Of a DNA stretch of 45,899 nucleotides, positions 11,781 to 45,899 are shown piece after piece (position 1 is the stretch's first letter; every line of letters starts with the position of its first letter). The notes under the pieces were generated by a model that saw only the letters and a list, made by a program, of their open reading frames with translations, was not told where the DNA came from and searched no databases. The stretch spans positions 1 through 45,899 of the forward strand of contig DBDD01000179.1 of assembly GCA_002293365.1 (NCBI GenBank). Reading direction: 5' to 3'. Source of the DNA: Christensenella sp. UBA941 (GTDB lineage Bacteria; Bacillota; Clostridia; Christensenellales; UBA941). Both the position numbers and the translations under genes were made by a program.

Positions 11781-11783
11781 AGG

Positions 11784-13100: not shown

Positions 13101-13101
13101 G

Positions 13102-29864: not shown

Positions 29865-30396
29865 GGCCGACCTCACCGTCGAGCCCGAACGCCCATTTAG
29901 AACATTCGGCGCAAGCGCTATGATCCCGCTCCACTTCTACGCAATCCCGACCGTACATGCATGTGTTAGGCAGACGCGCATATTTTCTGACAGCTTGCAA
30001 AAGCAGAGCGTTTTCATCAGCTTGGCGCTCTATCGTATCCAGTAGCTCCGGTAGCGCGTTTCGCGCAGCAACCATGATAATTGCGTCGGGATGGTCGATA
30101 TAATCGTCAAACCCGTCGTGATGCTCCTTGCCGGGATAAGACCTGGCGAGCTTATCGGCGCGTACCATACCGCGACCACGCCTTTCGCCGACGGGCCCGT
30201 CATACTTTTCGTAAACCTGAAACACCGGGCAAGCGTCGCTCATACCCCATCTGGCGAACTGCATCACGTAATACATGCCGCTGTGTGTGGTGACGATCTG
30301 CGCCAATTTACAGCCTGTACGCATATCCCACATCCAAGGACCCGGCGTGGCGGCGCGTTCTTGCTCCCGAAGAGCCTTAAATTCCGTATTATTCAT
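29857..30396 (-). CDS. Ead/Ea22-like early protein
   Basis: An ATPGPW motif lies near the N-terminus and a Cys cluster near the C-terminus. The call is weak. Confidence 0.35.
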   Translation of the reverse strand: MNNTEFKALREQERAATPGPWMWDMRTGCKLAQIVTTHSGMYYVMQFARWGMSDACPVFQVYEKYDGPVGERRGRGMVRADKLARSYPGKEHHDGFDDYIDHPDAIIMVAARNALPELLDTIERQADENALLLQAVRKYARLPNTCMYGRDCVEVERDHSACAECSKWAFGLDGEVGHE

Positions 30397-31150
30397 CGCG
30401 CTTACCCCGCTTGCGAACCTTGATGATACGCGTCTTTACCATCGTGCCGCTCTCGGAAAAAGCGCCTGCGGGCAGCTCATGGATTTCAGCGCCGACTACT
30501 TCGAGCCATGTGCGGAATACGACCGACTTTTTATTCGTTCTGAAAAACGGGCTCTCGCTGACGATTGAGACGAGGATTCCGCCGGGCTCCAACAAGCGGA
30601 AGGCGTGATAGATGTGGTCTATATCCTGTTGTCGGGAAAACGGCGGGTTCATAACGATTCTGGGATAATGCATACTTATTTCAGGGTCGAGACGCAGGAA
30701 GTCGTCACAATATACAGGGTACGGCTTTCCGGCATGCCGTTTCGCCATCTCGAAATTAATTTCAAGGCAAGTAACATTTTTTATGCGCTCGTATATAACG
30801 TCCGCTAAATCACACTCTCCGCACGACGGCTCCAGCACGGCGCGCGCTGCCTCTAGCCTCGCCATGTCGCACATCCGCTCTGCAATTGGGCGCGGCGTAG
30901 GAAAGAACTGAAAAACCTTCTTCGCATCGACTACCTCGCCGGATACGACGAGCGCGTCTAGCAGCTCGGCGGGGTCTTCATCGAACACATGGCCCTTCGC
31001 TTTGCGATTCCACTTGCCGCCGATGCTTTCGAGGCACTTATTAACCGCCTCGTAGGTTTTGCGTTCTAACTGCCCCTCGGGTAGATAGGCGACATTGCCG
31101 TCGGTCCGGCAATTCGATAAAATATTAAGAATATTATCAGGTATTCTCAT
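30389..31150 (-). CDS. SAM-dependent DNA N6-adenine methyltransferase (orphan)
   Basis: The sequence has motif I VLEPSCGECD and motif IV MNPPFS. No adjacent restriction gene is present. Confidence 0.65.
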   Translation of the reverse strand: MRIPDNILNILSNCRTDGNVAYLPEGQLERKTYEAVNKCLESIGGKWNRKAKGHVFDEDPAELLDALVVSGEVVDAKKVFQFFPTPRPIAERMCDMARLEAARAVLEPSCGECDLADVIYERIKNVTCLEINFEMAKRHAGKPYPVYCDDFLRLDPEISMHYPRIVMNPPFSRQQDIDHIYHAFRLLEPGGILVSIVSESPFFRTNKKSVVFRTWLEVVGAEIHELPAGAFSESGTMVKTRIIKVRKRGKRDE

Positions 31151-31175
31151 AGCTCCTCCAAATTTCGGGTTATTA

Positions 31176-31196
31176 CCCGCCCCACAAGGGGGCGGG
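31176..31196 (-). other. GC-rich stem-loop between two early genes
   Basis: CCCGCCCC-5 nt-GGGGCGGG forms a perfect 8-bp stem. It has no U-tract, so terminator function is uncertain. Confidence 0.35.
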
Positions 31197-31207
31197 ATTG
31201 CGCGATA

Positions 31208-31912
31208 TTAGATACAGAAGCACAGGTGCACGCGAATGGCGGTGCCCGCGGCGGAGGAGTAGCGCGGAATGCCGTAGTAGTTGACATAGCAGAAGTTGGA
31301 TGCCGACCCGGCCAGCGAACGCGTCCAATACCAATCGTATTCTCCCGAATCGTTGCGCCGTCTTCTGTCGGCGGATGTAGCGAAAACTTCGTATCTCTCG
31401 CCGTCCTCGAAATTCGACCAGACAGCGGAGCCGAACATTTCACTCTCTGAGGGCAGAAATAGCTTGTCCTCCGTGATTATGGGCTCGCCGTCGCTGGTGT
31501 GCGTGGTTTTTTGAATAGTACGAATGAATTGCTTAAGCTCGTCCGGCATTTCATTGAAATACTCCGAATTAAGCCATTCGCGCAGCTCGGTATCTACCCA
31601 GCCTCTCTCGCACGCGCCGCTGTGCATACGGCGCTCGATGAGCAAGGCTTTAGCCATGACAGTAATTGTGGGCCACGCATAGTCTTCCGCGTCACAATCG
31701 CGGTCAAAGCCAATAATTTCAAGCTCGTAGCCTGCCGCGCTGATGATATCGTGCAGGGCGAAACTGTCGCGCGCCTTCCCGGCCTTGACGATCTCGCTGA
31801 CTTCGGCGATGGTGTATTCGTCGGCGGACTTCGGGCACGCGAATCCGAGCTCCCTTAATTGTGCCTTCGTAAGCTCGGTTTTGTTGCCGTTGATACTGAG
31901 ATAGTTTTCCAT
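31208..31912 (-). CDS. DUF6273-like protein
   Basis: The segments ..WVDTELREWLNSEYFNEMP..DKLFLPSESEMFG..DWYWTRSL...FCYVNYYG....GTAIRVHLCFCI follow the W..s.lR.WLN / LLS..E / WWLRS / G(V/I)RP pattern of that family. Confidence 0.45.
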   Translation of the reverse strand: MENYLSINGNKTELTKAQLRELGFACPKSADEYTIAEVSEIVKAGKARDSFALHDIISAAGYELEIIGFDRDCDAEDYAWPTITVMAKALLIERRMHSGACERGWVDTELREWLNSEYFNEMPDELKQFIRTIQKTTHTSDGEPIITEDKLFLPSESEMFGSAVWSNFEDGERYEVFATSADRRRRNDSGEYDWYWTRSLAGSASNFCYVNYYGIPRYSSAAGTAIRVHLCFCI

Positions 31913-33996: not shown

Positions 33997-34003
33997 GCTT
34001 GTA

Positions 34004-34018
34004 TAGACAATATGTCTA
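34004..34018. promoter_or_regulatory. Operator O4 (TAGAC-N5-GTCTA)
   Basis: The sequence tagacaatatgtcta lies just downstream of the cI-side -10. Confidence 0.7.
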
Positions 34019-34043
34019 GTTTATTATAGATTTGGTGATAAAA

Positions 34044-34376
34044 ATGATTGGAAAGCGCTTGGAAGATGCTCGCGAAAGCAAGGGCTATAGCAGGAAAGAA
34101 GTCGCGAAGTATCTGAATATCCATGAATCGACATACGGTAAATATGAGCTGGGGCATAGAAAGCCCGACGCTGAAACAATTTTAGCCTTAGCGAATTATT
34201 ACGGCGTATCTGTTGATTCATTGCTCGGCAGAGAAGTCGAGCCCGCCGCCAAAGAAGACGACGGGCTGACGGATAAAGGCCGGGAGCTGGTTGAAATCGC
34301 TAAGATTCTGGACGAATCGGGTAAAGATGTTCTGATTGCTGCTGGTCGCGCCTTAATTGACGGGCAAGCAAAATAA
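34044..34376 (+). CDS. CI-like XRE-family HTH repressor
   Basis: I preferred ATG 34044 (GGTGA upstream) over the listed TTG 34032. The sequence is MIGKRLEDARESKGYSRKEVAKYLNIHESTYGKYELGHRKPDAETILALANYYGVSVDSLLG. Confidence 0.75.
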   Translation: MIGKRLEDARESKGYSRKEVAKYLNIHESTYGKYELGHRKPDAETILALANYYGVSVDSLLGREVEPAAKEDDGLTDKGRELVEIAKILDESGKDVLIAAGRALIDGQAK

Positions 34377-34656
34377 GCTCCTCTATATCTGAATCGGTCA
34401 ATGCTTGGAGTGTCTTAATTAGAGTTTCGAGCTTGGGGTCGTAGTCATTAGTATCCACGATTATCAAACTCCTTCTGTATTAAGATCACTATCGATAGTT
34501 TTACTATTATAGCATATGTTGTCGAAAAATGAGGTATATGCTGCAATCCATTTCTAAAACTTGGGCTCGCGCCGCCCGTATGTACTCCGACCTATCATGA
34601 GATATGACATTATAGAAGCTGAATTATGCGAAAGATAGCGAAGGGATCATATTAAA

Positions 34657-34854
34657 GTGAAGTATGTTACCAAGATATTACTTACAGTGCTATGCCTCTT
34701 ATCTCCGTCAATAATCATGAGCATAATACGAGTTAATGGCTTCGAGGTTTACGCCGCCGTAACATTTCATCTATGGTTACCGATGTTTTTTCTTCTTCGC
34801 CGGATTTGGCGAAAAAATAAATGTACAAGTGATAGCGGAAGGGATTATTCGTAA
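34657..34854 (+). CDS. Small hydrophobic membrane protein (moron gene 1)
   Basis: The 65-aa ORF has a GTG start and two hydrophobic segments. Its stop overlaps the next start (TAATG). The DNA is AT-rich. Confidence 0.4.
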   Translation: MKYVTKILLTVLCLLSPSIIMSIIRVNGFEVYAAVTFHLWLPMFFLLRRIWRKNKCTSDSGRDYS

Positions 34855-36065
34855 TGAAGCAAACAAGATCGGCGTGTGTGTTTAGCTTATTAGTAATACT
34901 AATCCTGGCAACGCTTTCAGCAAGCGCATTTGCCGCAGAGCAAACCGAGTATAAAACACATGTAATTGATGCACTGAACCTTAGCATAGAGCTTCCGTCA
35001 GATTGGTTTGTGCTGTCTAGGGATACGCCTTCAGATAGTGAATTATTAAAGGATATAGATGTTGACTACGAACAGCTAATGTCTTTTTTTCAAGAAAGAA
35101 GCGTTTACTTAAGCGCTTTTTATTTGCCAAGCGTTTTTGACGAGTTTAGTATAATCTCGCTTGATCTTGTTGATACGCCGGATTTAACTGAATATAGCGA
35201 ACAAGAGTTAGAAATCGAAACCGACGCTTTAATAGCCTCGCTTTCGAGTAGAGAGCGTGTATATGCTATTTCAGAAACAAGTATTTCGCGCACGGAAAAT
35301 GATGTATTCATTGTCGTAGATGGTGTTTTAGAAGAAAACGGAGTACAGATATATGCACTCCAGTATTTTACTATTAGAAACAACAAAGGCATAAGCTTCA
35401 CTTTTAGATCGCCATATGAAATATCTTCTATGAGAAAAAATGAAATCCGCCGAATAATACAAACAGTAAAAATCAACACCCAATTAGAACGATTGCCATC
35501 ATCTAAAGATACATCTGCCGCCAGTTCTATCGCGCCAACGAATACTATTTCCTCCCAGCGCAGCTACACCACTCCCGAAGAGGGCTATATCCAGGAATTT
35601 TACATGGTATTAATCGCTATCGCTTTACCTATTTGTTATTATTTATATTGCTCCAAAAGCAAAAAGCGGATTAAAAATAGATGGAGATGGAACATAATGG
35701 GCGTAGCAGTCTTATCGCCACTTGTTCGCTTAGTCGGCTCAATGATAGGTCGATCAATGGCAGAGAGAGATTTTCCCGGCATCGGGACGCCTATTTCCTG
35801 GTATGATTTTCTTATATGGGTTTTCAGCAGTTTTATTATTGTTCTCGTTGGCTTCGTGATCGAGCTCGCAGATAGAAAAAATTCTAACAGAAAGAACTTT
35901 CGTATTGAAGGAGTATCGAGTGTGGGAAGCGCAAAAGCTATTCCTACCCAAGAAGAAACTCCGACAATAGAGAGAGAATTATCGGCTTATAAAAGATTGT
36001 TAGACAACAAACTAATATCACAGGATGATTACGATGCTAAAAAGAAGCAGATTCTTGGACTATAA
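34854..36065 (+). CDS. Signal-peptide and multi-TM protein with C-terminal SHOCT-like domain (moron gene 2)
   Basis: The sequence has a signal peptide (..ATLSASAFA/AEQ), an extracytoplasmic domain of about 220 aa, three hydrophobic helices, and a C-terminal segment LSAYKRLLDNKLISQDDYDAKKKQILGL that matches the SHOCT pattern. Confidence 0.55.
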   Translation: MKQTRSACVFSLLVILILATLSASAFAAEQTEYKTHVIDALNLSIELPSDWFVLSRDTPSDSELLKDIDVDYEQLMSFFQERSVYLSAFYLPSVFDEFSIISLDLVDTPDLTEYSEQELEIETDALIASLSSRERVYAISETSISRTENDVFIVVDGVLEENGVQIYALQYFTIRNNKGISFTFRSPYEISSMRKNEIRRIIQTVKINTQLERLPSSKDTSAASSIAPTNTISSQRSYTTPEEGYIQEFYMVLIAIALPICYYLYCSKSKKRIKNRWRWNIMGVAVLSPLVRLVGSMIGRSMAERDFPGIGTPISWYDFLIWVFSSFIIVLVGFVIELADRKNSNRKNFRIEGVSSVGSAKAIPTQEETPTIERELSAYKRLLDNKLISQDDYDAKKKQILGL

Positions 36066-36080
36066 ACAAAGGAGCCTCCC

Positions 36081-37313
36081 ATGCCAAAAAAAACAAAAGA
36101 CGGTCGTTACCGCGCAAAGATCACAGTTGGCCGCGATGTCGCCGGAAAGCCGGTTTATAAGTACGCCTCCGCCTCAACAAAGCGCGAGCTGGAAGCAGAG
36201 AAAACCCGCATCCGGCAGTTGTATATCGACGGCCTCCAAGACGTAAACCAGGACGTTTTGTTTGGCGCATACGCAAAGGAATGGTACGAGACGTACAAGG
36301 AGCCCTCTATAGGCTTTTCATCGCGAACAGTATATGCAGGCGTTATGAACAAACACATTATGCCTGCCTTCCAGGATCGTCAAGTAAAGGCGATTCGCTC
36401 CGGCGAGTTGCAACAATTTTTAAACGACCGCGCGCATATGTCGAAAACGGAAGTTCGGTATCTGATGAGCGTTTTGAAGAACATTTTTAAACGGGCTTTA
36501 GTAGACGGCGTTATCTCCCGTGATCCAACGCTGGCGCTGACAAAGGCATACCGGCCAGAGAAGAAGAAACGCGCCTTAAACGACGCCGAGCAAAAGGCGG
36601 CGCTGTATGTCGCGGCAAACCACCCGGACGGCTTAATTCTGTCTATCCTATACTATACCGGCCTCCGGCGCGGAGAAGCGCTTGGGCTTCAGTGGCAGGA
36701 TATAGATTTCGCAAAACAGTGGATACGCGTTATTCGCGATATAGATTTCAAGACCGAAAGCGTCGGCGATTTGAAGAACGAAGAATCATTCCGCGACATT
36801 CCGTTGACGCCCGAACTGCAAGAGGCGCTAGAACCAAGGCGGGGCATCGGGGCGACGTTCGTCATTCAAGCGCCCGTATCGCATTCACACCTATGTAAGG
36901 CGACGTTTGAGCGCGTATGGGAGGGATTACAGGCGGCTATGCTCGAAGCCGAGCCGTCCATCGACAAGGAAGAGCTTCCATCGTCCAAAAAGCGGCGTGA
37001 GAAATATGAGAAGGAACGAAAAGGCAAAAAGGATAGGCGGGGCAGGGCATACAAGGAGCCCAAGCCGGTATACGGGAGCATTTTGACGCCGCACTACTTT
37101 CGCCACAATTATTGCTCCGTCTTATACAACGCAGGCGTGGATGTATTAACCGCCCAAAAGTACCTAGGGCATTCAGATATCAGGACTACTCTAGCAATCT
37201 ACGCGCATCTGTCCGAGAAAAAGAAGGATGAAGGCGCGGAACTCGTAAAAGCCGCATTTTCAAAAAAAGTTGCCGAAAAGTTGCCAGACAAGAAAATACC
37301 GAAGCTCGAATAG
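36081..37313 (+). CDS. int: Tyrosine recombinase / phage integrase
   Basis: The sequence shows ..GLRRGEALGLQWQDIDF.. (Arg I region), HYFRHNY (H-x-x-R) and LGHSDIRTTLAIYAHL (catalytic Tyr region). It is the last phage gene before the tRNA. Confidence 0.85.
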   Translation: MPKKTKDGRYRAKITVGRDVAGKPVYKYASASTKRELEAEKTRIRQLYIDGLQDVNQDVLFGAYAKEWYETYKEPSIGFSSRTVYAGVMNKHIMPAFQDRQVKAIRSGELQQFLNDRAHMSKTEVRYLMSVLKNIFKRALVDGVISRDPTLALTKAYRPEKKKRALNDAEQKAALYVAANHPDGLILSILYYTGLRRGEALGLQWQDIDFAKQWIRVIRDIDFKTESVGDLKNEESFRDIPLTPELQEALEPRRGIGATFVIQAPVSHSHLCKATFERVWEGLQAAMLEAEPSIDKEELPSSKKRREKYEKERKGKKDRRGRAYKEPKPVYGSILTPHYFRHNYCSVLYNAGVDVLTAQKYLGHSDIRTTLAIYAHLSEKKKDEGAELVKAAFSKKVAEKLPDKKIPKLE

Positions 37314-37683: not shown

Positions 37684-38964
37684 ATGAGTGATTATAACAA
37701 CAACCCATACCGCTATGATCCATATTCTCATGGTTACGAGCCTAAACGCAAAAGCGGTTCGGCGGCGCGCGTCGTTGCTTTGCTTATGGCGGTCGTGCTG
37801 TTAAGCGGCATTACGACGTTCGGCATTCAAAGCGCAATGAACGCAAAGGCGCAGCAGGAGCTCGACGTCAGGTTCGATCAGCTTGCGCAGCAATTACAGC
37901 AATTCCCCGCGTCTTCGGCAATGGCGGTTACAACTACTCCCGCACCGGCTATCGTTGACGGAAACTCCGCAAATCCTACGGCTAGGCCGGTCGTAACGGG
38001 CGATGCTATGACCATCTCGGACATCGCGGAAGCCGTGCGCCCATCTATCGTAGGCGTTCGCGTTACAGGCCAAACGCGCAGGCGCTTCGGCCAATCGCCC
38101 GGCAATACGACGCTTTCCGAGGGCTCGGGCGTAATAATGAGCTCCGACGGCTATATCATGACGAATTATCACGTCATCGAATACTCCCAAATGGAAGGCG
38201 CGGGTATCACTATTGTCCTTAGCGACGCGCGCGAATTCGGTGCGACGCTAGTCGGTGGCGACCAAACGAGCGATCTCGCCGTACTAAAAGTTGACGCAAG
38301 CGGGCTGCCCGCCGCAAAGATGGGCACCTCCAGCAACCTTCGCGTAGGCGATACGGCTATCGCCATCGGCAACCCGATGGGGCTTGAATTCGCAGGCTCC
38401 GTCACGAGCGGCATTATCAGCGCGATCGACCGCACGATAGAAGTAGAGGACGGCATCTCGCTCGCGGTCATTCAGACGGACGCCGCGATTAATCCGGGCA
38501 ATTCCGGCGGAGCGCTTTTGAACGACAGGGGTGAAGTTATCGGCATCAATACGGTCAAAATTTCATCGACTGGCGTAGAGGGCCTTGGCTTTGCGATCCC
38601 GATCGACAGCGCTCTTCCGGTTTTGAACGACCTGCGCGATCACGGCAAGGTCACCGGCCGCCCGTCGCTAGGCGTGCTGAATCCTATAGCTGTGGATGAA
38701 ATGAGCGCCCGCATCTACGGCTACCCGCTCGGCGTATTTATCGAGGAAACCGCTGAAGGCGGCGCGGCCCAAAGGGCGGGATTGCTGGCGGGCGATATAA
38801 TTACGGAGCTCGACGGTATACAGATACGCTCCATCAACGATATCAATACCGTTAAGGAGCAGCACAAGGTCGGCGACACGATTTCGGTTAAAGTTATGCG
38901 CTATAATGAAGCCGTAAGGAATTATGAAGAAATGACCGCTTCGCTAACGTTCCAGGAGGCATAG
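37684..38964 (+). CDS. htrA: HtrA/DegP-family serine protease with an N-terminal membrane anchor and a C-terminal PDZ domain
   Basis: The sequence has a TM helix (AARVVALLMAVVLLSGITTFGI), the His region TNYHVI, the Asp region SDLAVLKV, the Ser motif GNSGGALLN, and a PDZ-like C-terminus (..GAAQRAGLLAGDIITELDG..). Confidence 0.85.
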   Translation: MSDYNNNPYRYDPYSHGYEPKRKSGSAARVVALLMAVVLLSGITTFGIQSAMNAKAQQELDVRFDQLAQQLQQFPASSAMAVTTTPAPAIVDGNSANPTARPVVTGDAMTISDIAEAVRPSIVGVRVTGQTRRRFGQSPGNTTLSEGSGVIMSSDGYIMTNYHVIEYSQMEGAGITIVLSDAREFGATLVGGDQTSDLAVLKVDASGLPAAKMGTSSNLRVGDTAIAIGNPMGLEFAGSVTSGIISAIDRTIEVEDGISLAVIQTDAAINPGNSGGALLNDRGEVIGINTVKISSTGVEGLGFAIPIDSALPVLNDLRDHGKVTGRPSLGVLNPIAVDEMSARIYGYPLGVFIEETAEGGAAQRAGLLAGDIITELDGIQIRSINDINTVKEQHKVGDTISVKVMRYNEAVRNYEEMTASLTFQEA

Positions 38965-38975
38965 ACGAAAATACC

Positions 38976-39016
38976 ATATACGTCAAAGGGGGAGCACGCT
39001 CCCCCTTTGACGTATA
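38976..39016. terminator. Long perfect hairpin between convergent genes (bidirectional terminator)
   Basis: The arms ATATACGTCAAAGGGGGAGC and GCTCCCCCTTTGACGTATAA pair almost perfectly, giving a stem of at least 13 bp with GC-rich pairs near its top. It lies between the htrA end and the end of ORF 39022..39651. Confidence 0.7.
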
Positions 39017-39021
39017 ATCGT

Positions 39022-39651
39022 TTAAACGTATTGCAAAACGTCGATATAGAATTGAATCGCGTCCGCGGAATCGTCAACGTCCAAATTATTGCACGCCCAG
39101 CCAAAAGGAATCCTCACGTATTCCCAGCCGTCTCGAACGGGGAGAACGACTTCCTGCCATTCGTCTTCAAGATATAAAGTCGTCGTGCTTTGCTCGCCAT
39201 TATCCCCCTCAATATACAGCTTAACCCAGCCGCCGCTCCCTTTTATCTGGAAACTGCACTCCTTGTATTTATTTACGTCCGGCCCCTTCGCGCCGGGGTC
39301 GTAATCCCAATCGCCCTTTTTCCAAAGCAAAACCGCACCCGCCCAATGGCTCGAGCCGCTCGGCGTATAGGAAAACATCATGGATTCCTTGCCTGCGGAA
39401 AACTGGGACTTATCGCTACCGTCGAATTTTATGCTGCCGTCGTTGCCGTTTTTGACGCTGCCCATATACGCGACGGCTGCGTATCTGTCCGCTTTCAGGA
39501 CGGTGCTGTCGTCCTTGAACATGCGGTATACCGTTTTCTTCGCGGCGGGCTTGGGAGTTTTAGCCGGCGCGGCAGCCGTCGCGAAGAGGGAAATAAGCAT
39601 AACGAAAACCAATAACAGAACGTTTGCCCTTTTAGTTTTCACAGAGAACAA
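39022..39651 (-). CDS. Secreted protein with a conserved ~150-aa (CBM/jelly-roll-like?) domain, paralog A
   Basis: The protein has a signal peptide (VLLLVFVMLISLFATAAA). The domain shares FSYTP..HWAGAVLLW..GDWDYDPG..GPD..KLYIEGDNGEQS..LEDEWQEVVLPV..GWEYV with the C-terminus of ORF 39711..40709. Confidence 0.5.
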   Translation of the reverse strand: MFSVKTKRANVLLLVFVMLISLFATAAAPAKTPKPAAKKTVYRMFKDDSTVLKADRYAAVAYMGSVKNGNDGSIKFDGSDKSQFSAGKESMMFSYTPSGSSHWAGAVLLWKKGDWDYDPGAKGPDVNKYKECSFQIKGSGGWVKLYIEGDNGEQSTTTLYLEDEWQEVVLPVRDGWEYVRIPFGWACNNLDVDDSADAIQFYIDVLQYV

Positions 39652-39710
39652 CTCCTTTTATCATAATAGTTTTATAATAGTTTTATAATACTTTCACACA
39701 AAGCGCCTGT

Positions 39711-40709
39711 TTATCTTGTATACTTCAGGTCATCCAGATAGAATTCGAGCATCCCGCCCCTTTCGTCCGGATCGTTTTGATTCGCGACCCATGCGAACGG
39801 CGTTTTAACGTATGACCAGCCTGCTTCAACCGGAAGCCGAACTTCCTGCCATTCGTCCGTCAGAATTATCGTTTCAAGACTTTGGCTGCCGTCGTCTCCC
39901 TCGATATATACCTTCACATCGCCAAGCCCCTCTCCTCCACGGATTTTAAACGTACACCATCGGTATATAGCGGGGTCGGGCCCGTTCTCTCCGGGGTCAA
40001 CGTCCCATTCTCCGGGCATCCAAAGCAGCGCGACCCCGCCCCAGCTGTGCGTATTCGTAGGTGTAAACGAAAACCGGATGGATTCTTCGCCGGAATAAGC
40101 GTAGCTGGCGTTATTTTCGTCCATGGCAATGCCGCCGCCGGCAGTCGGCATATATCCGTAATCCATATGACGATTCGCGCTTAGGGAATCGCTGTCGTCT
40201 TCGAACATATAAAACTCATCCAGCTCTGGCGTAGGCTCTGGTGTCGGCTCAAACGTCGGCTCCGCCGCTGGCTCTTGCGTAGGCGTTGGCTCGGGCATAG
40301 GCCCAGGCTCGGGCGTGGCTTCCGGCGCAAGCATAGGCGTCAACACCAGTGAACGCTTGTCGTAGCTCTTGTCCACAACGTTTTTTATGCTGCTGAAATC
40401 CACGTTGCCCGGTACGAGGTACAGCGCGGCGCTGTTGGCGCTTATCCCTTGGATATCTATTGAGAATATGCCGCTGCTTTCGTCGAACGACCGGAAGGGG
40501 GCGTTATTCGCATCCCTGTAAGGCGGCTCGGCGTCGTTTATATACACAAGCAACTTATGCTTGGCCGGATCGCCGTTTTGAACCGTACCGGCGATTTTGC
40601 CGTCCGGCGATACAAAGGCCTCGAGAAACGATGGCCTCGCCGATTCGCACGCGGTCGCCGCCAATAGCGCAAGGATCAGCGCTAGAGCGATTGTGGCCGT
40701 TCTTTTCAC
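39711..40709 (-). CDS. Lipoprotein with an N-terminal Ig-like(?) domain, a Pro/Glu/Thr linker and the conserved C-terminal domain, paralog B
   Basis: The protein has the lipobox LLAATAC, the linker PEATPEPGPMPEPTPTQEPAAEPTFEPTPEPTPE, and a C-terminal domain paralogous to 39022..39651. Confidence 0.5.
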   Translation of the reverse strand: MKRTATIALALILALLAATACESARPSFLEAFVSPDGKIAGTVQNGDPAKHKLLVYINDAEPPYRDANNAPFRSFDESSGIFSIDIQGISANSAALYLVPGNVDFSSIKNVVDKSYDKRSLVLTPMLAPEATPEPGPMPEPTPTQEPAAEPTFEPTPEPTPELDEFYMFEDDSDSLSANRHMDYGYMPTAGGGIAMDENNASYAYSGEESIRFSFTPTNTHSWGGVALLWMPGEWDVDPGENGPDPAIYRWCTFKIRGGEGLGDVKVYIEGDDGSQSLETIILTDEWQEVRLPVEAGWSYVKTPFAWVANQNDPDERGGMLEFYLDDLKYTR

Positions 40710-40761
40710 TTGAAGGCACCTCCTTGTATGTCATCCGCGGGGAACGCGAAAAAACTTCTAC

Positions 40762-41253
40762 CTAATCCCGAACATTTCCCGTTTTTGCGTCCCATACCTC
40801 ATCCAAAGCATAATCCCGCCGCAATATGCTCCAAACCGGCTCGCCGCTATTCGACAGCTCTTCAATATCGAGCCCGGCGGGTACGAGCAGCAGCGAATAA
40901 TACACCGCGCTCATATCGTCCGGCTGATCCTCGGAATACGCCGCGACGGCAAACGTGCCGTCGGGATTGACCGGGTTTACAGCCATATCGCTGGGCATGG
41001 CGTAGTATTCTTCGGAGGCTTCATCCATTTTGATGAACAATGCGACGCCATATGCGCCGGGAATCTCCGCGCCGGCTATGCGGCCCGTCACGGTATGCTC
41101 CCCGATGTTGTATTGATGCTCCCGGAAGTGTACGCCGCGCGAGAGAAATTGGCCGAAGATCAACAGCGTCCAGATGATGATTAGCAGTATCGCCGCCGCA
41201 ATTAATATCGCGGCGCGACGCTTGCCCGTCTGACGATCGCTCCTTTCGCTCAT
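40762..41253 (-). CDS. Single-pass membrane protein with an extracytoplasmic domain related to the N-domain of 39711..40709
   Basis: The TM helix is AAILIAAAILLIIIWTLLIFGQF. The start overlaps the upstream stop as ATGA. The shared pattern is ..I(A)G....(L)(F/V)(I/Y)...DG.F.......Y.L.(L)VP.G.D.. Confidence 0.45.
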   Translation of the reverse strand: MSERSDRQTGKRRAAILIAAAILLIIIWTLLIFGQFLSRGVHFREHQYNIGEHTVTGRIAGAEIPGAYGVALFIKMDEASEEYYAMPSDMAVNPVNPDGTFAVAAYSEDQPDDMSAVYYSLLLVPAGLDIEELSNSGEPVWSILRRDYALDEVWDAKTGNVRD

Positions 41254-42323
41254 GGCGCGGCCTCCCCGCGTTCCTCCGCGATCCTGTTCAGCGCCGCCTG
41301 TGCGTATGACATCGGTTCGAGCTCTTGGTTAATCAAGTGCCAATAGCCATCGTCATATTTGTTTTTCCATTTCTCTTCCAGCGCTGCGAAGTAGATTATT
41401 TCGATATCCTCCTTGCGTGAAAGCGCATAGACGTCTTCGAGGTAGCGGGCGGCGTTTTCGAAGCTTGGGACGGCCGCGCTTACGCTTTCCCCGGCATGCT
41501 TCCATCCGGTCTCCGAGCAGATAAGCATCGTACTATCTCCGGCGGCGCCGAGCAGCCTTTGATGCATATTTAGAAGCTCCTCCGCCGCGTTTTCGACTGA
41601 TATCCCCTCAAAGAACGGATAGTACGTGTATAGCGCCACATCTGCGGCTTTGATTACCTCGGGATGGCTCAAGAGCTCGCCAGCCGTATCGGACGTACCG
41701 ACGGGCAGCTCGTTTTCGAGCGCGCTTCTGACATATTCCATCCAACCTATCAGCGATTCCGCCGAATAGTCCGAGCGCATGAGGCCTTCGCTCCCGACGA
41801 CGAGAATATCCGCAAGGCCCTCGTTGCCAAGCCGTATCAGCGTATCAAGCTCCCCGCGTGCCATATCCTCGCTATAGCCGGGGCCAATCCAACAGCCGGC
41901 GATTATTCTGAATTTGAAATCATCCTTCGCGATTTGGTAGAGCTTTGTCAGCTCGCCGCTCACGCCAAACGTTCTTATTGTATCCGTGAAAGGAGCGATT
42001 GCCTCGAGCGCGTTGCGCATGTCGTTCTCCGATATGGGGCTTTGCGCGTCGGGATCCGCACCCGGCATATAGTAAGGTGAGAAATTCAGGCTAAGCGCCG
42101 GAGTATCTTTTGGATACTTCCACGCGGCGGCAAACGGTTCTTTGGAGGCGGCGGACGGCTCTTTGGACGCGGACGCCCTTATTCCCGGCGTGAGCGACGG
42201 CGAAGGCGCTGGCTCCGCCATGCCGTACGAGGACGCAGGATGCGCGAACGCGACCAGAAACAGCCCCACCAACGCTCCAAGGCATACTTCCAGCATGATC
42301 CCGATGCTTCTTGACAAATTCAT
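41250..42323 (-). CDS. Secreted GH17-like glycoside hydrolase
   Basis: The protein has an N-terminal hydrophobic signal/anchor. VVGSEGL resembles the GH17 acid/base region (vGNE) and ICSETGWKHAG resembles the nucleophile region (sEtGWPs.G). The AAGGAG RBS lies directly after the JAB gene stop. Confidence 0.5.
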   Translation of the reverse strand: MNLSRSIGIMLEVCLGALVGLFLVAFAHPASSYGMAEPAPSPSLTPGIRASASKEPSAASKEPFAAAWKYPKDTPALSLNFSPYYMPGADPDAQSPISENDMRNALEAIAPFTDTIRTFGVSGELTKLYQIAKDDFKFRIIAGCWIGPGYSEDMARGELDTLIRLGNEGLADILVVGSEGLMRSDYSAESLIGWMEYVRSALENELPVGTSDTAGELLSHPEVIKAADVALYTYYPFFEGISVENAAEELLNMHQRLLGAAGDSTMLICSETGWKHAGESVSAAVPSFENAARYLEDVYALSRKEDIEIIYFAALEEKWKNKYDDGYWHLINQELEPMSYAQAALNRIAEERGEAAP

Positions 42324-42335
42324 GGCCGGCTCCTT

Positions 42336-42848
42336 TCATATGCCATTATACAGTATTTCCTGCGGTTTGCGCACTGTACTATTGATACCCTTCAGCTTTT
42401 TATCCGGTAGCCGAACCGAAACTTTGCCGCCATTCCTATCAAACGCTTCAATCGCTTTCTTCTGCGGATTGATCACCGCGCTTATGCCGCCCGGAAAAAG
42501 CTTCAGATGCGTATCGGTATCCTCATGGGAAAGAAAAATACCGAGCTCATGCGGATGCGAATGAATGCTCCCGATAAGCTTCATGCCCATATCGTCCAAC
42601 ATCCACATGGCGAGCATCCAGATATCACCCGTCACCTTTACGTGAGAAGCGGAGGACGCGGCGCTGAGCAGCGGCAGCGCGCTCTTAACGATAACTCTGT
42701 TTCCCCGCTCCGCACCGCCCAGCGCGCATATCTGCTCGCGTTTGTTCCACACTCCGTCCATATTCCAGCCAAAGTACGCCTTGATAAGATTCCACGCATA
42801 GGGTTCGAAAACGGCGATTTTGGGCGCGGCGGCGCTATCTCGCTTCAT
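42336..42848 (-). CDS. JAB/MPN+ (JAMM) metallopeptidase
   Basis: The JAMM motif is GSIHSHPHELGIFLSHEDTD (H-S-H...S-x-x-D), with an upstream Glu in KREQICALGG. I moved the start to ATG 42848, which overlaps the E2 end by 14 nt. The listed ORF overlaps it by 92 nt. Confidence 0.75.
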   Translation of the reverse strand: MKRDSAAAPKIAVFEPYAWNLIKAYFGWNMDGVWNKREQICALGGAERGNRVIVKSALPLLSAASSASHVKVTGDIWMLAMWMLDDMGMKLIGSIHSHPHELGIFLSHEDTDTHLKLFPGGISAVINPQKKAIEAFDRNGGKVSVRLPDKKLKGINSTVRKPQEILYNGI

Positions 42849-43344
42849 CTTCGAATACCGGGCAAGGCATCGGGAAGCCCTCGGGCACGCCGCCTTTATA
42901 GCCTCTGCAAAAGCTCTCGCAATCACGATCCGCCTTGCTGGCGAAGTTGAACGTAGCGGGATCGAGGAACAAAACCCTGAGCGTGCGCACCGTCTCCGAA
43001 GCCAGCGTCTCGTCGGAACGCCACCTGCCGATACATACCTGCCCGCTTGCGTACACGTTCACATGGGCGGGCGGCGCGCTGATAAACTTTACCACAGGCG
43101 CTTCCTTCAAAGGATAATTCGCGCCCGCCTCGATGCAAAATACGTGCGGGCCATGGGATTCCGCCGGCGCGGCGTCCTTTTGCTTTACATAGGTTGGCGC
43201 GAAAACCGTAACCCGATAGCGGCGATACGGCTTTGAGCCCTCGCCCTCCACCTCGATATAGCCTTCGCGCCGAAGCGAATACATCAGCTCGCGCTCGGCC
43301 TCGAGCCGTGCGAGCATTCGCCGCGTGGCCGCGTTTTCAGCCAT
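42835..43344 (-). CDS. E2 (UBC-fold) ubiquitin-conjugating-enzyme-like protein
   Basis: The segment HVNVYASGQVCIG has the same H-x-N...C spacing as eukaryotic HPNINSNGSICLD. GAAGGAGG lies upstream and the gene starts 3 nt after the E1 stop. Confidence 0.7.
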   Translation of the reverse strand: MAENAATRRMLARLEAERELMYSLRREGYIEVEGEGSKPYRRYRVTVFAPTYVKQKDAAPAESHGPHVFCIEAGANYPLKEAPVVKFISAPPAHVNVYASGQVCIGRWRSDETLASETVRTLRVLFLDPATFNFASKADRDCESFCRGYKGGVPEGFPMPCPVFEDEAR

Positions 43345-43347
43345 TCT

Positions 43348-44499
43348 TCATACCTCCTTCGCGTAGATCTTCATCAAGGCCGCATAGTCGCGTGACATCC
43401 GGAAGGTATGCAGCTCGCCTCCTGGCCCCGCGGCGAGTATTTCGCCCATAAAGCGAAATCCCAGCTCCGCGAGCGCGCGTCCGCCCGCCGGGCCGCCCTT
43501 GGTGAATTGTGATATGACGACGGCGTCGTCCGCCGCTCTTTCCGATATAGGGCAGTGCCTCATATCGCTCTCTTTCACGCGGCGCAGCGGCTTTCCCACC
43601 GGATAAGACGCCCCGCAGCTTTTACAAGCGCCTTCAAGCACGTAATCGTCCGCGCCGAAAACCGTAACTCCCTCGCCGAGCGCGCGCTCCAGGCGCTCGA
43701 TAAGCTGATCCATCGTCGTCGCCGCGATATCGCCTTCTAGCATTATCGCCTGATGCGCTTCGCCATGGCAGGCGCATTTTGGATCGAAGCCGAGGTCGAA
43801 AGCATACATCTCGCCGAACTCCGTTTCGTAATAGCGGCGATCCGGGCCAGGCGTTTCAAGCCGGCGGGTCATTTCGGCAACGAGGCGGTTCGCGCATAAC
43901 GCTGAGGAGGTTTGCAGCGCGGACGCCCGGTTTTCCCGGACATCGCGTTCGTAGCGCGCCCCGCAAGAGGCAATTCGCGTGTCCCTTGACTGGGCTGGGT
44001 CTTTTTTGCAGCAAAGGCACGCGCCGCCGGGGCTGTTAATCAAAATTTCTGCGGAGCTGTTCCAGCCGTTGGTCGCCCCTCTATATACGGATACTCCGGA
44101 ATCGGCGGTCATTTCGCCGACATGCCAAACGCTTTCCATATTATCAAGGGCAACGACAACGGCGGTAAAATCGCGGAAGAACGCGCCGCCTAAATCGCGG
44201 ACGTCGGCTTCAAGCCAGGTGGCTTCACACGCAGGCTCCCAAGCGCGAATATAGCCGGCTAAAAGGCGCGCCTTACTCTTGCCCACGTCCCGCGCGGGAT
44301 GGAACAGCCCCGCGCTGCGCGGGCAGTTGTGCGCGCTTACGGCGTCGTAGTCGACGAGCGTGAAATTTCTGTAACCCATCTGCAGCGCGGCGAGTACGGC
44401 GTTACAGCCCACCGCGCCGCAGCCGAGCACGCATAGCTTGGCAGAACGGACGCGCGAAAGGGAAACGATATCGCCAAAGTCGTATACCACGCTTGCCAT
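43348..44499 (-). CDS. E1-like (ThiF/MoeB/UBA-type) adenylating enzyme
   Basis: The sequence has the Rossmann motif KLCVLGCGAVGCNAVLAL, DYDAVSAHNCPR (D.D.V...N..R), VGKSKARLLA and VVALDN, plus Cys pairs KCACHG / ACKSCG that form a Zn-site-like arrangement. I moved the start to ATG 44499 (MASVVYDFG). The listed 443-aa ORF would overlap the Ubl gene by 170 nt. Confidence 0.75.
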   Translation of the reverse strand: MASVVYDFGDIVSLSRVRSAKLCVLGCGAVGCNAVLAALQMGYRNFTLVDYDAVSAHNCPRSAGLFHPARDVGKSKARLLAGYIRAWEPACEATWLEADVRDLGGAFFRDFTAVVVALDNMESVWHVGEMTADSGVSVYRGATNGWNSSAEILINSPGGACLCCKKDPAQSRDTRIASCGARYERDVRENRASALQTSSALCANRLVAEMTRRLETPGPDRRYYETEFGEMYAFDLGFDPKCACHGEAHQAIMLEGDIAATTMDQLIERLERALGEGVTVFGADDYVLEGACKSCGASYPVGKPLRRVKESDMRHCPISERAADDAVVISQFTKGGPAGGRALAELGFRFMGEILAAGPGGELHTFRMSRDYAALMKIYAKEV

Positions 44500-44509
44500 A
44501 GCTGTCACC

Positions 44510-44782
44510 TCAGGCGTTGACGGTATCCGGCAATACCAATATCTCGATTTCACCCAGGCCGGGCCAAAGCGTGCCGATCGTATCGCGCTTATCGCCGAGT
44601 ACGCGCCTGTTGACGGAATCCGCGAACACCAAATCGCGCGCCCCAAAGGCCGAAGCGTTCTCCCTGTATAATGACTCAAGCTGATTTAGCGTCGCGGCGT
44701 CGCCGATTTCGATCCGAACCTCGTTGCCCGCGTTATCGCGTATGCTAAGTTTGCGCGTCCTGTCCGTAGTTTGATTATCCAT
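44510..44782 (-). CDS. Ubiquitin-like (beta-grasp) protein, 90 aa, C-terminus ...EIEILVLPDTVNA
   Basis: The secondary-structure pattern parallels ubiquitin: KLSIRD / EVRIEI strands, ATLNQLESLYRENAS helix, DLVFAD, then ...GEIEILVLP (compare STLHLVLRLRGG). GAGGGAGGA lies upstream. The gene lies directly upstream of E1. Confidence 0.6.
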   Translation of the reverse strand: MDNQTTDRTRKLSIRDNAGNEVRIEIGDAATLNQLESLYRENASAFGARDLVFADSVNRRVLGDKRDTIGTLWPGLGEIEILVLPDTVNA

Positions 44783-44840
44783 AATATCCTCCCTCTTAAA
44801 GCTTCTTTCAGTTTCTGCATTGTACTATTGCGCCGCTTCG

Positions 44841-45341
44841 CTATAATGCTGCCATAACCGCTTTGAATACGGCGTAGGCAACCGATAGCCCTGTAAAAAC
44901 GACGCAGGCTGCCAGCGATGTTTTTTTTAGCGACTCATCCTCCTCCATTAAAGCTTCGCCCAGGCGCTCCAATACTTGCGCTTTTTCTCCCTCCAAGGCT
45001 TCGATACGCCCCAGCAACTCCGCTTCGGCTTCGCCTTGCTCTCTGGCGCGAGCCCTTGCGCGCAATGCGCGCAAGGGATATTCGAGCACGCTATCGTCCC
45101 GCCGGCTGCGCTCCCTGAGCAGCAGCTGGTTGGCGCGTAAAAAGTAGAGCGGTTCGACGGAGTCGCACAAAGGGCACTTGTCCCGCCAGTCTTCAGAATA
45201 GAATACCTTTCGGCACTCGTGGCAGCATACGATTTCGTCGCCTGGCTGAAACCTCTGTAGCCATATCGATTCGCGCGGGCCATACGCAATGAACAGCGCG
45301 TCCTTCCGGGCGTCAAGCGTGTAGCGGAAATCGATCTCCAT
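44841..45341 (-). CDS. Zn-ribbon / coiled-coil / C-terminal tail-anchor protein
   Basis: The CxxC...CxxC motif is CCHECRKVF...CPLCDS. A charged coiled coil follows (RARARAREQGEAEAELLGRIEALEGEKAQVLERLGEAL). The C-terminal hydrophobic helix is LAACVVFTGLSVAYAVFKAVMAAL. GGGAG lies upstream. Confidence 0.5.
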   Translation of the reverse strand: MEIDFRYTLDARKDALFIAYGPRESIWLQRFQPGDEIVCCHECRKVFYSEDWRDKCPLCDSVEPLYFLRANQLLLRERSRRDDSVLEYPLRALRARARAREQGEAEAELLGRIEALEGEKAQVLERLGEALMEEDESLKKTSLAACVVFTGLSVAYAVFKAVMAAL

Positions 45342-45363
45342 GTCTTCGCTCCCTTTTTAAGGC

Positions 45364-45899
45364 TTACGCATGCATATCCAAATCGTCGCCGCCATTCGCG
45401 ATTTCGGCGTCTATCGTCAAAACCCCGTCGTCTATCAATTGCGCGACCGTGTAATAATCCGGAACGTTTGGCAGCATCCAGAATTCTGTTTGCCGTGCGC
45501 TGCTAGCCAAGCTAAGACGTTCTCTTTGCGCTCTGAGCGCTTCCAGCTCTTCGTCCATTCTTTCGGCATCCGCCTGCAGCGCGCTATGGAAACGGCTTCG
45601 CCCCGGCGCTTTGCGGAGGCTAATAAACCTGATAAACAGCAGCGGCAGCGCGAAAAGACCGGCGGAGGTTTTGCCGAAAAACGCAAAAACAGCCATAACT
45701 ATGAACATCATGAGCGCGGATATGCATAGCGCCCGATCGCCTTCTCTTCGCGCTATAAACGCATAAGCGCCTTCCGCGGAAGCTATGAGCGCAAAAGCGA
45801 CAAAGCCGGGGCCGGCAGCGCCGTCTATCGGAAACGCGGCGCTATCAAGAACGCGCAGCGCCGACGCGCAGCCAAGCACAGACGCCGCCGCGTATCCGA
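45364..45899 (-). CDS. Polytopic membrane protein with a cytoplasmic coiled-coil C-terminal domain (5' end outside window)
   Basis: At least three hydrophobic helices are present. The frame stays open upstream of the listed GTG (..GYAAAS-VLGCAS..) to the window edge. The C-terminus contains ..DAERMDEELEALRAQRERL... Confidence 0.5.
   Translation of the reverse strand, partial: GYAAASVLGCASALRVLDSAAFPIDGAAGPGFVAFALIASAEGAYAFIARREGDRALCISALMMFIVMAVFAFFGKTSAGLFALPLLFIRFISLRKAPGRSRFHSALQADAERMDEELEALRAQRERLSLASSARQTEFWMLPNVPDYYTVAQLIDDGVLTIDAEIANGGDDLDMHA

Follow-up and report, generated by a model that had tools for sequence, protein, structure and literature searches.

Ubiquitination-like pathways have been demonstrated in bacteria only recently, with CBASS Cap2, Bil and Bub, which use a diverged activating (E1) or conjugating (E2) enzyme and have all been tied to phage defense. 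A compact E1 and an E2 of the UBC type with an HPN-like motif characterize the classical branch of this chemistry, whose presence in bacteria has been predicted; Burroughs, Iyer and Aravind reportedly foresaw classical-E2, RING-associated systems in 2011, YukD-like modifiers included. As far as the available literature shows, this branch has been reconstituted only from an archaeon, Caldiarchaeum subterraneum, whose operon encodes ubiquitin, E1, E2, a small RING finger protein and Rpn11 (PMC5654768, PMC6043591). Here, we analyzed contig DBDD01000179.1 of Christensenella sp. UBA941 over its positions 1 to 45,899 (the window), where minus-strand genes at the right end encode a ubiquitin-like protein (Ubl), an E1, an E2 and a JAMM/JAB peptidase. 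The operon represents the classical branch in a bacterium, in compact and apparently intact form, and it combines unusual properties: an obligatory C-terminal Ala on the modifier, a membrane-anchored zinc-binding partner and co-transcribed genes for cell-surface glycan enzymes. On balance, we consider it probable that these genes encode a complete, reversible Ubl-conjugation cascade of the classical thioester type within a membrane-centered operon of roughly ten genes, with a role in a glycan-processing module as the likeliest function. This overall judgment is dominated by the biochemical cascade.

Genes for a ubiquitin-like conjugation cascade with a classical E2

An earlier note on this DNA, made from its letters and open reading frames (ORFs), had recognized six co-directional minus-strand genes at 42336-45899. 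It read them as a 90-amino-acid (aa) protein with a ubiquitin-like fold that ends in Ala instead of Gly, a ThiF/E1-type adenylase with a Rossmann motif, a UBC-type E2 with H-x-N-x7-C spacing, a JAMM peptidase (HSH...S..D) and, upstream, a zinc-ribbon protein and a polytopic membrane protein that might be conserved neighbors. All six genes were found at those coordinates, the beta-grasp, E1, E2 and JAMM assignments were recovered in the searches described below, and the two upstream genes proved to be conserved neighbors. Start codons were assigned via ribosome-binding sites; independent public gene calls concur, giving the same products of 166, 90, 383, 169 and 170 aa on the identical public contig.

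The E2 (42835-43344, minus strand, 169 aa) carries the motif HVNVYASGQVC, that is, H94-V-N96-x7-C104, and H94, N96 and C104 are invariant in 12 homologs. When aligned by HMMER to yeast Rad6, the three residues coincide with its HPN...C stretch. Sequence matches of the E2 in the PDB were eukaryotic UBCs, both for the single sequence (25 of 26) and for the profile (all 15). Its score against Pfam UQ_con (23.2 bits) lies under the cut-off of 27, which three more distant relatives exceed (P0033, 40.1 bits; P0035, 31.5 bits; P0032, 28.1 bits). An AlphaFold model of the E2 from 12 sequences was poor, with a predicted local distance difference test score (pLDDT) of 48.9. Foldseek returned almost exclusively UBC/UFC1-type E2s for this unreliable model, at weak values (E≥1e-3, TM-score about 0.3) that we did not use as proof.

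The E1 (43348-44499, minus strand, 383 aa) scores 84.1 bits against Pfam ThiF (cut-off 28.1; E 1.1e-23). It contains a single adenylation (ThiF) domain at about residues 14-217, and no second adenylation-like region was found within the 383 aa. The motifs GCGAVGCN, ALDN and CLCC...CAC are present in its sequence, and the invariant residues include GCGxxG, D50, R61, K74, D119, the Asp of ALDN, C161/C163/C164, C179 and C242/C244. Against the PDB, a profile of six family members retrieved SAE2/UBA2 (5e-16) and UBA3 (4e-15), then UBA1, UBA7 and UBA6; the same profile reached MoeB at 5e-6 and Cap2 at 3.6e-4. It retrieved no Bil or Bub E1 chain from the PDB, even though Bil complexes (8tyx, 8tyz) are included there. 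C161/C163/C164 and C242/C244 are putative zinc ligands. Cys179, by its position, is a candidate for the catalytic Cys: it lies a few residues past the first Cys cluster and about 15 residues before the next conserved helix, a position that we take to match that of the catalytic Cys of SAE2. The E1 ends in a conserved Cys-containing domain of ~130 aa, for which there was no sequence match in the PDB and which probably recruits the E2. The start codon is the ATG at 44499, preceded by GAGGTG; a 443-aa ORF from a TTG start was rejected, as it overlaps the Ubl gene and conflicts with the ribosome-binding site and the public gene calls.

A direct partnership of the two enzymes is indicated by a natural fusion. 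In a related locus from a Clostridiales metagenome-assembled genome (L015), E1 and E2 are joined into one 406-aa protein (P0031), in which the E2 replaces the C-terminal domain of an E1 51% identical to that of the window. By analogy with the ubiquitin-fold domain (UFD) of eukaryotic E1s, this suggests that the replaced domain normally recruits the E2. Another, distant E2 relative, P0039 (290 aa), is a fusion between a YukD-like beta-grasp domain (29.9 bits against Pfam YukD) and an E2 of the UBC type whose motif is HPN-x7-CC; it fits the older prediction of conjugated YukD-like Ubls.

The modifier itself (44510-44782, minus strand, 90 aa) had no match in Pfam, NCBIfam or other sequence searches, and its fold was recovered by modeling. 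An AlphaFold model from a 19-sequence alignment (pLDDT 80.4) shows the order beta-beta-alpha-beta-beta-(alpha)-beta, as in ubiquitin. Foldseek against the PDB gave 227 matches at E≤1e-3, and those listed were ubiquitin-fold proteins. The best was the Caldiarchaeum ubiquitin (6fno_D, TM-score 0.75), followed by UBX and SUMO; BilA (8tyx_A, TM-score 0.77) ranked 8 and ISG15 ranked 13.

The C-terminus of the modifier reads ...PDTVNA, with Ala90 as its last residue. This Ala is invariant in 19/19 homologs, within a mature-end consensus of D-T-x-[NF]-A rather than Gly-Gly. Eight of the 19, including the protein of the window, stop at Ala90, and the other 11 carry unconserved tails of 2-36 aa. An invariant residue followed by unrelated tails is a pattern shared with ubiquitin, SUMO, BilA and the Caldiarchaeum pro-ubiquitin, and we accordingly read it as a sequence signature of precursor processing, with Ala90 as the predicted conjugating C-terminus. 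The CD-NTases of CBASS have Gly or Ala at their C-terminus, and conjugation takes place with one that ends in Ala (PMC10097602), so an Ala terminus is compatible with E1/E2 chemistry.

The peptidase (42336-42848, minus strand) contains E38, H96-S-H98-P and S107-x2-D110, residues that are invariant in 8 homologs. It scores 21.4 bits against Pfam Prok-JAB, under the cut-off of 25. Its profile matched AMSH/STAMBP (1.5e-5), the Caldiarchaeum Rpn11-like protease (3.2e-4) and Sst2 in the PDB, and did not retrieve BilC or Cap3 there. The protein starts at 42848 (170 aa), with a 14-nt overlap with the E2 gene; a 196-aa ORF from a GTG at 42926 was rejected, since it overlaps the upstream gene and conflicts with the ribosome-binding site and the public gene calls. 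Its predicted tasks are the trimming of Ubl precursors and the release of the modifier from conjugates.

Comparison with Bil, Bub, CBASS and the Caldiarchaeum system

The locus had been proposed to be a member or a relative of the operon group that includes Bil. All four Bil activities (Ubl, E2, JAB and E1) are found here, and as in Bil each has a gene of its own within a single operon. Another likeness lies in the chemistry, as Bil uses its JAB to pre-process the Ubl and proceeds through thioesters on a catalytic Cys. Bil protects against phage by attaching its Ubl to a tail protein. In this broadest sense the kinship stands, and membership in Bil does not, as the E1, the gene order and the E2 motif of Bil are missing. 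The Bil E1 is a tandem of inactive and active adenylation domains (IAD-AAD) with a CYS domain, whereas the window E1 has one ThiF domain in 383 aa. The E2 of Bil Type II has a CEHH motif instead of H-x-N-x7-C, and class 6d E2s of Iyer et al., which we equate with Bil Type I by assumption, lack the classical His and have a conserved His after the Cys. Genes run Ubl-E2-DUB-E1 in Bil, where DUB denotes the deubiquitinase, and Ubl-E1-E2-JAB in the window. The Bil Ubl ends in a Gly exposed by the DUB and that of the window in Ala, although the tail/precursor pattern is common to both. Bil has no membrane partners, unlike the window operon, and the Bil chains in the PDB were not retrieved by the E1, E2 and JAB profiles of the window. 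Two of the departures from the canonical four-gene description that the earlier note had pointed out, the Ubl-E1-E2-JAB order and the H-x-N of the E2, are real. Together with the single-domain E1, they place the core genes outside the described Bil subtypes, as it had suspected. The membrane-linked effector or sensor that it also proposed is a conjecture.

Bub shares with the window a Ubl, an E1, an E2, often a JAB, and conjugation to proteins. However, its E1 and E2 lack the catalytic Cys and form Tyr/Ser oxyesters, while C104 of the window E2 and C179 of the E1 are invariant. Bub also carries the DUF6527 serine protease BubE and characteristic fusions; the only fusion among relatives of the window is E1-E2, in the opposite order, and DUF6527 had no Pfam match among the window proteins or the scanned flanking proteins of L004 and L015. 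Type II CBASS has in common with the window the E1, E2 and JAB chemistry and a conjugated protein that ends in Gly or Ala. It consists of a CD-NTase with an effector, the E2-E1 fusion Cap2 and Cap3, in contrast to the separate E1 and E2 of the window, and no CD-NTase or effector family was matched among the window proteins. The modifier of the window is instead a beta-grasp Ubl and its E2 is UBC-like with H-x-N, both unlike Type II CBASS. Sulfur-carrier systems of the ThiS/MoaD type combine an E1 and a Ubl with biosynthetic partners and have no E2, whereas the window has one.

By these sequence features, the system is not Bil, Bub or CBASS. Failing those features, it is closest to Caldiarchaeum-type and predicted bacterial classical-E2 systems. 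In common with the Caldiarchaeum operon it has a separate small Ubl, an E1 with a single adenylation domain and an extra C-terminal domain, and a peptidase of the JAMM/Rpn11 type; the E2 of each is of the UBC type, its HPN-type motif standing seven residues ahead of the Cys. Like many members of the window family, the archaeal Ubl is first produced with a C-terminal tail, as a precursor, and each operon encodes a small zinc-binding protein beside the enzymes. Differences remain: the window Ubl ends in Ala, not Gly-Gly; the zinc protein has two Cys pairs and is tail-anchored in the membrane; and the operon adds genes for a protein with four transmembrane (TM) helices, a GH17 enzyme, a single-pass protein and proteins resembling carbohydrate-binding modules (CBMs). 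The host is moreover a Clostridiales-like gut bacterium, and the enzymes of the operon have low sequence identity to those of archaea and eukaryotes. We considered and rejected a recent transfer from a eukaryote, since the similarity to eukaryotic enzymes is remote only.

Two membrane-protein genes precede the modifier gene

Upstream of the Ubl gene, on the same strand, lie the genes for a tail-anchored zinc-ribbon protein (44841-45341, 166 aa) and for a polytopic membrane protein (45364-45899), the latter partial with its 5' end cut by the contig end. The zinc-ribbon gene starts at an ATG preceded by a GGGAG ribosome-binding site. Its product has a conserved N-terminal domain of ~75 aa with C40-x2-C43...W52...C56-P-x-C59, followed by a variable acidic/coiled-coil linker and a predicted C-terminal TM helix at 141-166; 32 columns are invariant among 8 homologs. 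We compared it with RING proteins by Pfam searches on 5 members and by PDB searches with a full-length profile and an N-terminal-domain-only profile. Matches to RING-like families were non-significant (zf-C3HC4_3, E=0.028; Prok-RING_4, 0.15; Zf_2nd_IFT121, 0.15), as was that to the IFT122 zinc finger in the PDB (E 0.15), and the coiled-coil part of the profile drew in irrelevant designed proteins. The protein holds two Cys pairs and not the four Cys/His pairs of a RING. It is a candidate for a membrane-bound adaptor of the ubiquitin-ligase (E3) kind.

The partial ORF of the polytopic protein contains 4 TM helices and ends in a cytoplasmic tail, in which a conserved (E)FW(L/M)LP motif accompanies a coiled coil. 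No family in Pfam, NCBIfam or PADLOC matched it. Homologs of 215-370 aa with 3-5 predicted TM helices occupy the same position in L004, L011, L013, L016, L017 and L018, so that the order 4-TM, zinc-ribbon, Ubl is kept in these six loci and in the window. L015 has the same order with a degenerate zinc-ribbon gene, which brings the loci with the pair ahead of the Ubl gene to 8; in L005, at least the zinc-ribbon gene is present. Beyond the 4-TM gene, the upstream flanks vary among loci.

Glycan-related genes belong to the same transcription unit

The cluster extends beyond the six genes of the earlier note: ten co-directional minus-strand genes occupy the right end of the window (39022-45899). 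The four that follow the peptidase gene encode a GH17-family enzyme (41250-42323, 357 aa), a single-pass membrane protein that we call TM163 (40762-41253, 163 aa), a lipoprotein with a CBM-like domain (39711-40709, 332 aa) and a secreted CBM-like protein (39022-39651, 206-209 aa, the start being ambiguous by 9 nt). Intergenic spacing across the unit ranges from the 14-nt overlap up to 59 nt. Six nucleotides past the last stop codon, at 38977-39016 on the minus strand, lies an intrinsic-terminator hairpin with an 18-bp stem, the sole strong terminator-like site on that strand between 38800 and 45899. Two other minus-strand matches have 6-bp stems only, and matches in total were fewer than in shuffled sequences. 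Given the tight gaps and the one strong terminator after the last gene, the Ubl-conjugation genes and the GH17, TM163 and CBM-like genes are one terminator-bounded transcription unit. The six-gene boundary drawn earlier was thus too narrow, the more so as the additional genes recur in most related loci. The JAB and glycosidase genes, described there as translationally coupled, lie close together without overlapping: a 12-nt gap separates the two, and the glycosidase gene comes with a separate AAGGAG site. The real overlap, a 4-nt ATGA at 41250-41253, is at the GH17/TM163 junction.

The hairpin at 38977-39016 is perfect and GC-rich, and stands between the convergent genes for the last CBM-like protein and for an HtrA protein (37684-38964). 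It probably ends both transcription units, on the CBM-like side and on the HtrA side.

The GH17 protein matches a fungal beta-1,3-glucanosyltransferase in the PDB (4wtp) at 2.7e-28 over residues 99-322, with both Glu-containing stretches, VGSE and SETGW, aligned. It scores 28.9 bits against Pfam GH17 (cut-off 28.2) and has an N-terminal TM helix at 3-32, consistent with a membrane-anchored or secreted enzyme predicted to act on beta-1,3-glucan. TM163 consists of a TM helix (9-41) and an extracytoplasmic domain; it found no family match in Pfam or other library scans and has homologs in L004, L005, L006 and L015. The lipoprotein has an LLAATAC lipobox, a Pro/Thr/Glu-rich linker and a C-terminal CBM-like domain, with homologs in L004, L005, L006 and L014. 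The last gene product has a signal-like N-terminus and a weak match to CBM_11 (E=0.0016; 18.9 bits, cut-off 27). The two proteins share a paralogous C-terminal domain of ~170 aa, 44% identical, which is possibly a new carbohydrate-binding module family. An outward-facing orientation is predicted for the GH17 protein, for the TM163 family and for the CBM-like proteins.

The GH17 gene adjoins the Ubl genes in L004, L005, L006-8, L014 and L015. GH17, TM163 and CBM-like genes follow the JAB gene in L004, L005, L006-8 and L015, and stand in a different order in L014. The linkage thus outlasts rearrangement (L014) and divergence (the E1 identity of 51% in L015), without being universal, as L010 shows.

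The family is very rare

An E2 search of 5.8 billion protein clusters gave 11 matches, and a Ubl profile gave 19 in the same set; against 1.84 billion representatives, the E2 profile found 98 proteins at E≤1e-3 and 4 at E≤1e-30. Across 185,579 species genomes, patterns from the E2 alignment had 0 matches and patterns from the E1 alignment had 1, in the Clostridiales genome that holds L015. A scan of metagenome contigs recovered 6 loci, and 0 copies were found in phage records, plasmid records and viral contigs. The family is thus very rare. Names of contigs and of the assembled genome hint that the samples may come from termite guts. The order Ubl-E1-E2-JAB of the window holds throughout the related loci in which these genes could be read. 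Genes flanking the related loci are metabolic, pilus or ABC-transporter genes; no CapH/CapP, BrxR-type regulator or other defense gene was seen in neighborhoods with identifiable flanks, and in none of the loci read did a transposase or an integrase border the cassette itself. The earlier note had recommended a search for known defense systems; PADLOC on the window returned nothing beyond weak Cap2-type E1 matches, confined to the Rossmann part (E≥2.6e-10). In L015 (9401-11534), the split JAB gene consists of two short ORFs, neither of which includes the HxH motif region, and this locus is either a decaying copy or affected by assembly errors.

Proposed mechanism, role and alternatives

Parts, gene order, conservation, family affinities, catalytic motifs and the precursor signature are all observed, and from parts, motifs and conservation the biochemistry of the cascade can be well inferred. 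Where a C-terminal tail is present, the JAMM peptidase would remove it and expose the invariant Ala; the Ubl of the window would already be mature. The single-domain, presumably homodimeric E1 would adenylate Ala90 and take the Ubl onto a Cys of the crossover region, for which Cys179 is the candidate. The Ubl would then pass to Cys104 of the E2, brought in by the C-terminal domain of the E1, with Asn96 serving as the oxyanion residue. The tail-anchored zinc-ribbon protein and the 4-TM protein may, as an adaptor of the E3 kind, keep the charged E2 (E2~Ubl) on the cytoplasmic side of the membrane, and the Ubl would be transferred there to amine groups of targets. The JAMM peptidase would finally reverse the modification.

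As for the role of this cascade, we tentatively propose membrane-proximal regulation of, or signaling from, a cell-surface glycan-processing module, a reading that is possible without yet being likely. An envelope role is favored over a Bil-type defense by the co-transcription with outward-facing glycan proteins and by the absence of a defense context. We regard as doubtful the further suggestion that the tail-anchored protein is a mononuclear RING-like E3 which, with its 4-TM partner, directs the Ala-ended Ubl onto membrane proteins, a lipid or an envelope precursor. Coupled to an extracytoplasmic beta-1,3-glucan module, such a system would be a Firmicute counterpart of ubiquitin ligases of the endoplasmic reticulum membrane or of Atg8-type lipidation, apart from phage defense.

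Several points weigh against this picture. The case is built from sequence and models, and cytoplasmic tagging shares no obvious chemistry with secreted glycan enzymes. E2 and JAB both fall under the curated Pfam cut-offs, the E2 model is unreliable, and position and the fusion are the only grounds for reading the E1 C-terminal domain as a UFD and for choosing Cys179. For a RING or E3 identity of the zinc-ribbon protein no significant match was found, all being at E≥0.028. The conserved neighborhood has its gaps, too: L007 is without the zinc-ribbon and 4-TM genes upstream of the Ubl gene, and GH17 is missing in L010, where a convergent dehydrogenase gene follows the JAB gene. All the related loci were drawn from few and similar metagenomes, and their E2 identities are 57-84%, so the conserved gene order may partly reflect inheritance. 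Finally, L015 looks partly degenerate, with its JAB split and lacking the HxH region and its zinc-ribbon gene lacking a canonical start and the TM helix.

The same genes could instead form a Bil-like anti-phage system, in which the Ubl would be put on phage structural proteins or on a host effector, the membrane proteins would act as sensor or abortive-infection effector, and the glycan genes would be unrelated. The four activities are those of BilABCD, the Ubl model superposes on BilA (8tyx_A), and the characterized bacterial Ubl-E1-E2-DUB families, Bil and type II CBASS, are anti-phage, with Bub suggested to be so. The rare, patchy distribution is typical of defense genes, the distance from the locus to a prophage integrase is about 1.7 kb, and L010 has the core genes without GH17. 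We nevertheless judge this explanation unlikely: the E1 and E2 features that define Bil are missing, PADLOC saw only the weak Cap2-type similarity of the E1, identifiable flanks hold no defense genes or regulators, and phages, plasmids and viral contigs yielded no copy. In addition, the GH17, TM163 and CBM-like linkage is kept both in the rearranged L014 and in the E1-E2 fusion lineage of L015. Less probable again is a self-contained mobile cassette that modifies and demodifies proteins with the Ubl, an analog of restriction-modification at the protein level, whose envelope genes were co-inherited in one lineage with no functional tie. Aravind and colleagues proposed such a role for prokaryotic operons containing E2 and JAB genes (PMC3417536), and the sporadic, rare distribution, the variable upstream flanks and the lineages lacking GH17 or the zinc-ribbon and 4-TM genes would suit it. 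However, the genes are tightly packed and overlap across the supposed boundary with no strong internal terminator, the zinc-ribbon and 4-TM pair is conserved in 8 loci, and the cassette is not flanked by a transposase or integrase in any locus read.

That the E1 and Ubl form a sulfur-carrier or a peptide/cofactor biosynthetic pair (ThiS/MoaD/CysO-like) with a JAB maturase, without protein conjugation, is very unlikely. The window E1 does match ThiF/MoeB/TcdA models (E 1e-11 to 1e-7), and sets of JAB, Ubl and E1 occur in cysteine and siderophore pathways. Yet eukaryotic conjugating E1s came out far ahead of MoeB in the search with the E1 profile (5e-16 versus 5e-6), and the operon includes an E2 of the UBC type, its H-x-N and Cys invariant, which in one lineage is fused to the E1. 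No ThiG/ThiH/MoaE/CysM or other biosynthetic partner was found in any locus, nor any rhodanese domain, and we rejected a sulfur-carrier system on account of the E2 and of these missing partners.

If the envelope link that we tentatively favor is functional, the operon would provide the first case of a bacterial Ubl system that serves housekeeping or signaling at the membrane, and a tractable model for the origin of E2-E3-membrane coupling. If the operon serves defense instead, the known diversity of such defense systems would extend to Firmicutes and to classical E2 chemistry.

Neighboring genes and other observations

The cluster had been described as lying beside a prophage. It is not directly adjacent to it: the HtrA gene (37684-38964), convergent with the cluster, separates it from the prophage integrase gene (36081-37313). 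Just within the prophage end, a low-GC island (34000-36100; 0.39-0.42 versus about 0.55) holds an HTH_3 repressor-like gene (34032-34376) and a gene for a 403-aa secreted or membrane protein with a C-terminal SHOCT motif (34854-36065), directly followed by the integrase gene. The island looks like prophage cargo (a moron) or an exclusion module. Further into the prophage, the region 30389-31912 encodes a protein of 253 aa that had no Pfam match at E≤1e-3 and contains IVMNPPFS, a motif typical of N6-adenine DNA methyltransferases; a DUF6273 protein (31208-31912) adjoins it.

Among the related loci, homologous proteins of 399 aa (L004, 1594-2793) and 480 aa (L015, 7406-8848) are encoded upstream of the module, preceded by two further conserved genes (287/304 aa and 222/276 aa). 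Upstream proteins of L004 and L015, these two among them, had no real match in Pfam, NCBIfam or PADLOC. The 399-aa and 480-aa proteins both carry HIASHC ... L(A)DCC(K/H)S stretches followed by TM helices, which by eye only resemble the His-Cys dyad of caspase/CHAT proteases. The C-terminus of the L015 protein is the same ectodomain as that of TM163. Directly downstream of the module in L004, on the same strand (9641-14350), are genes of a type IV pilus or type II secretion system: an MshEN-T2SSE ATPase, a second T2SSE, a T2SSF and an N_methyl pilin.

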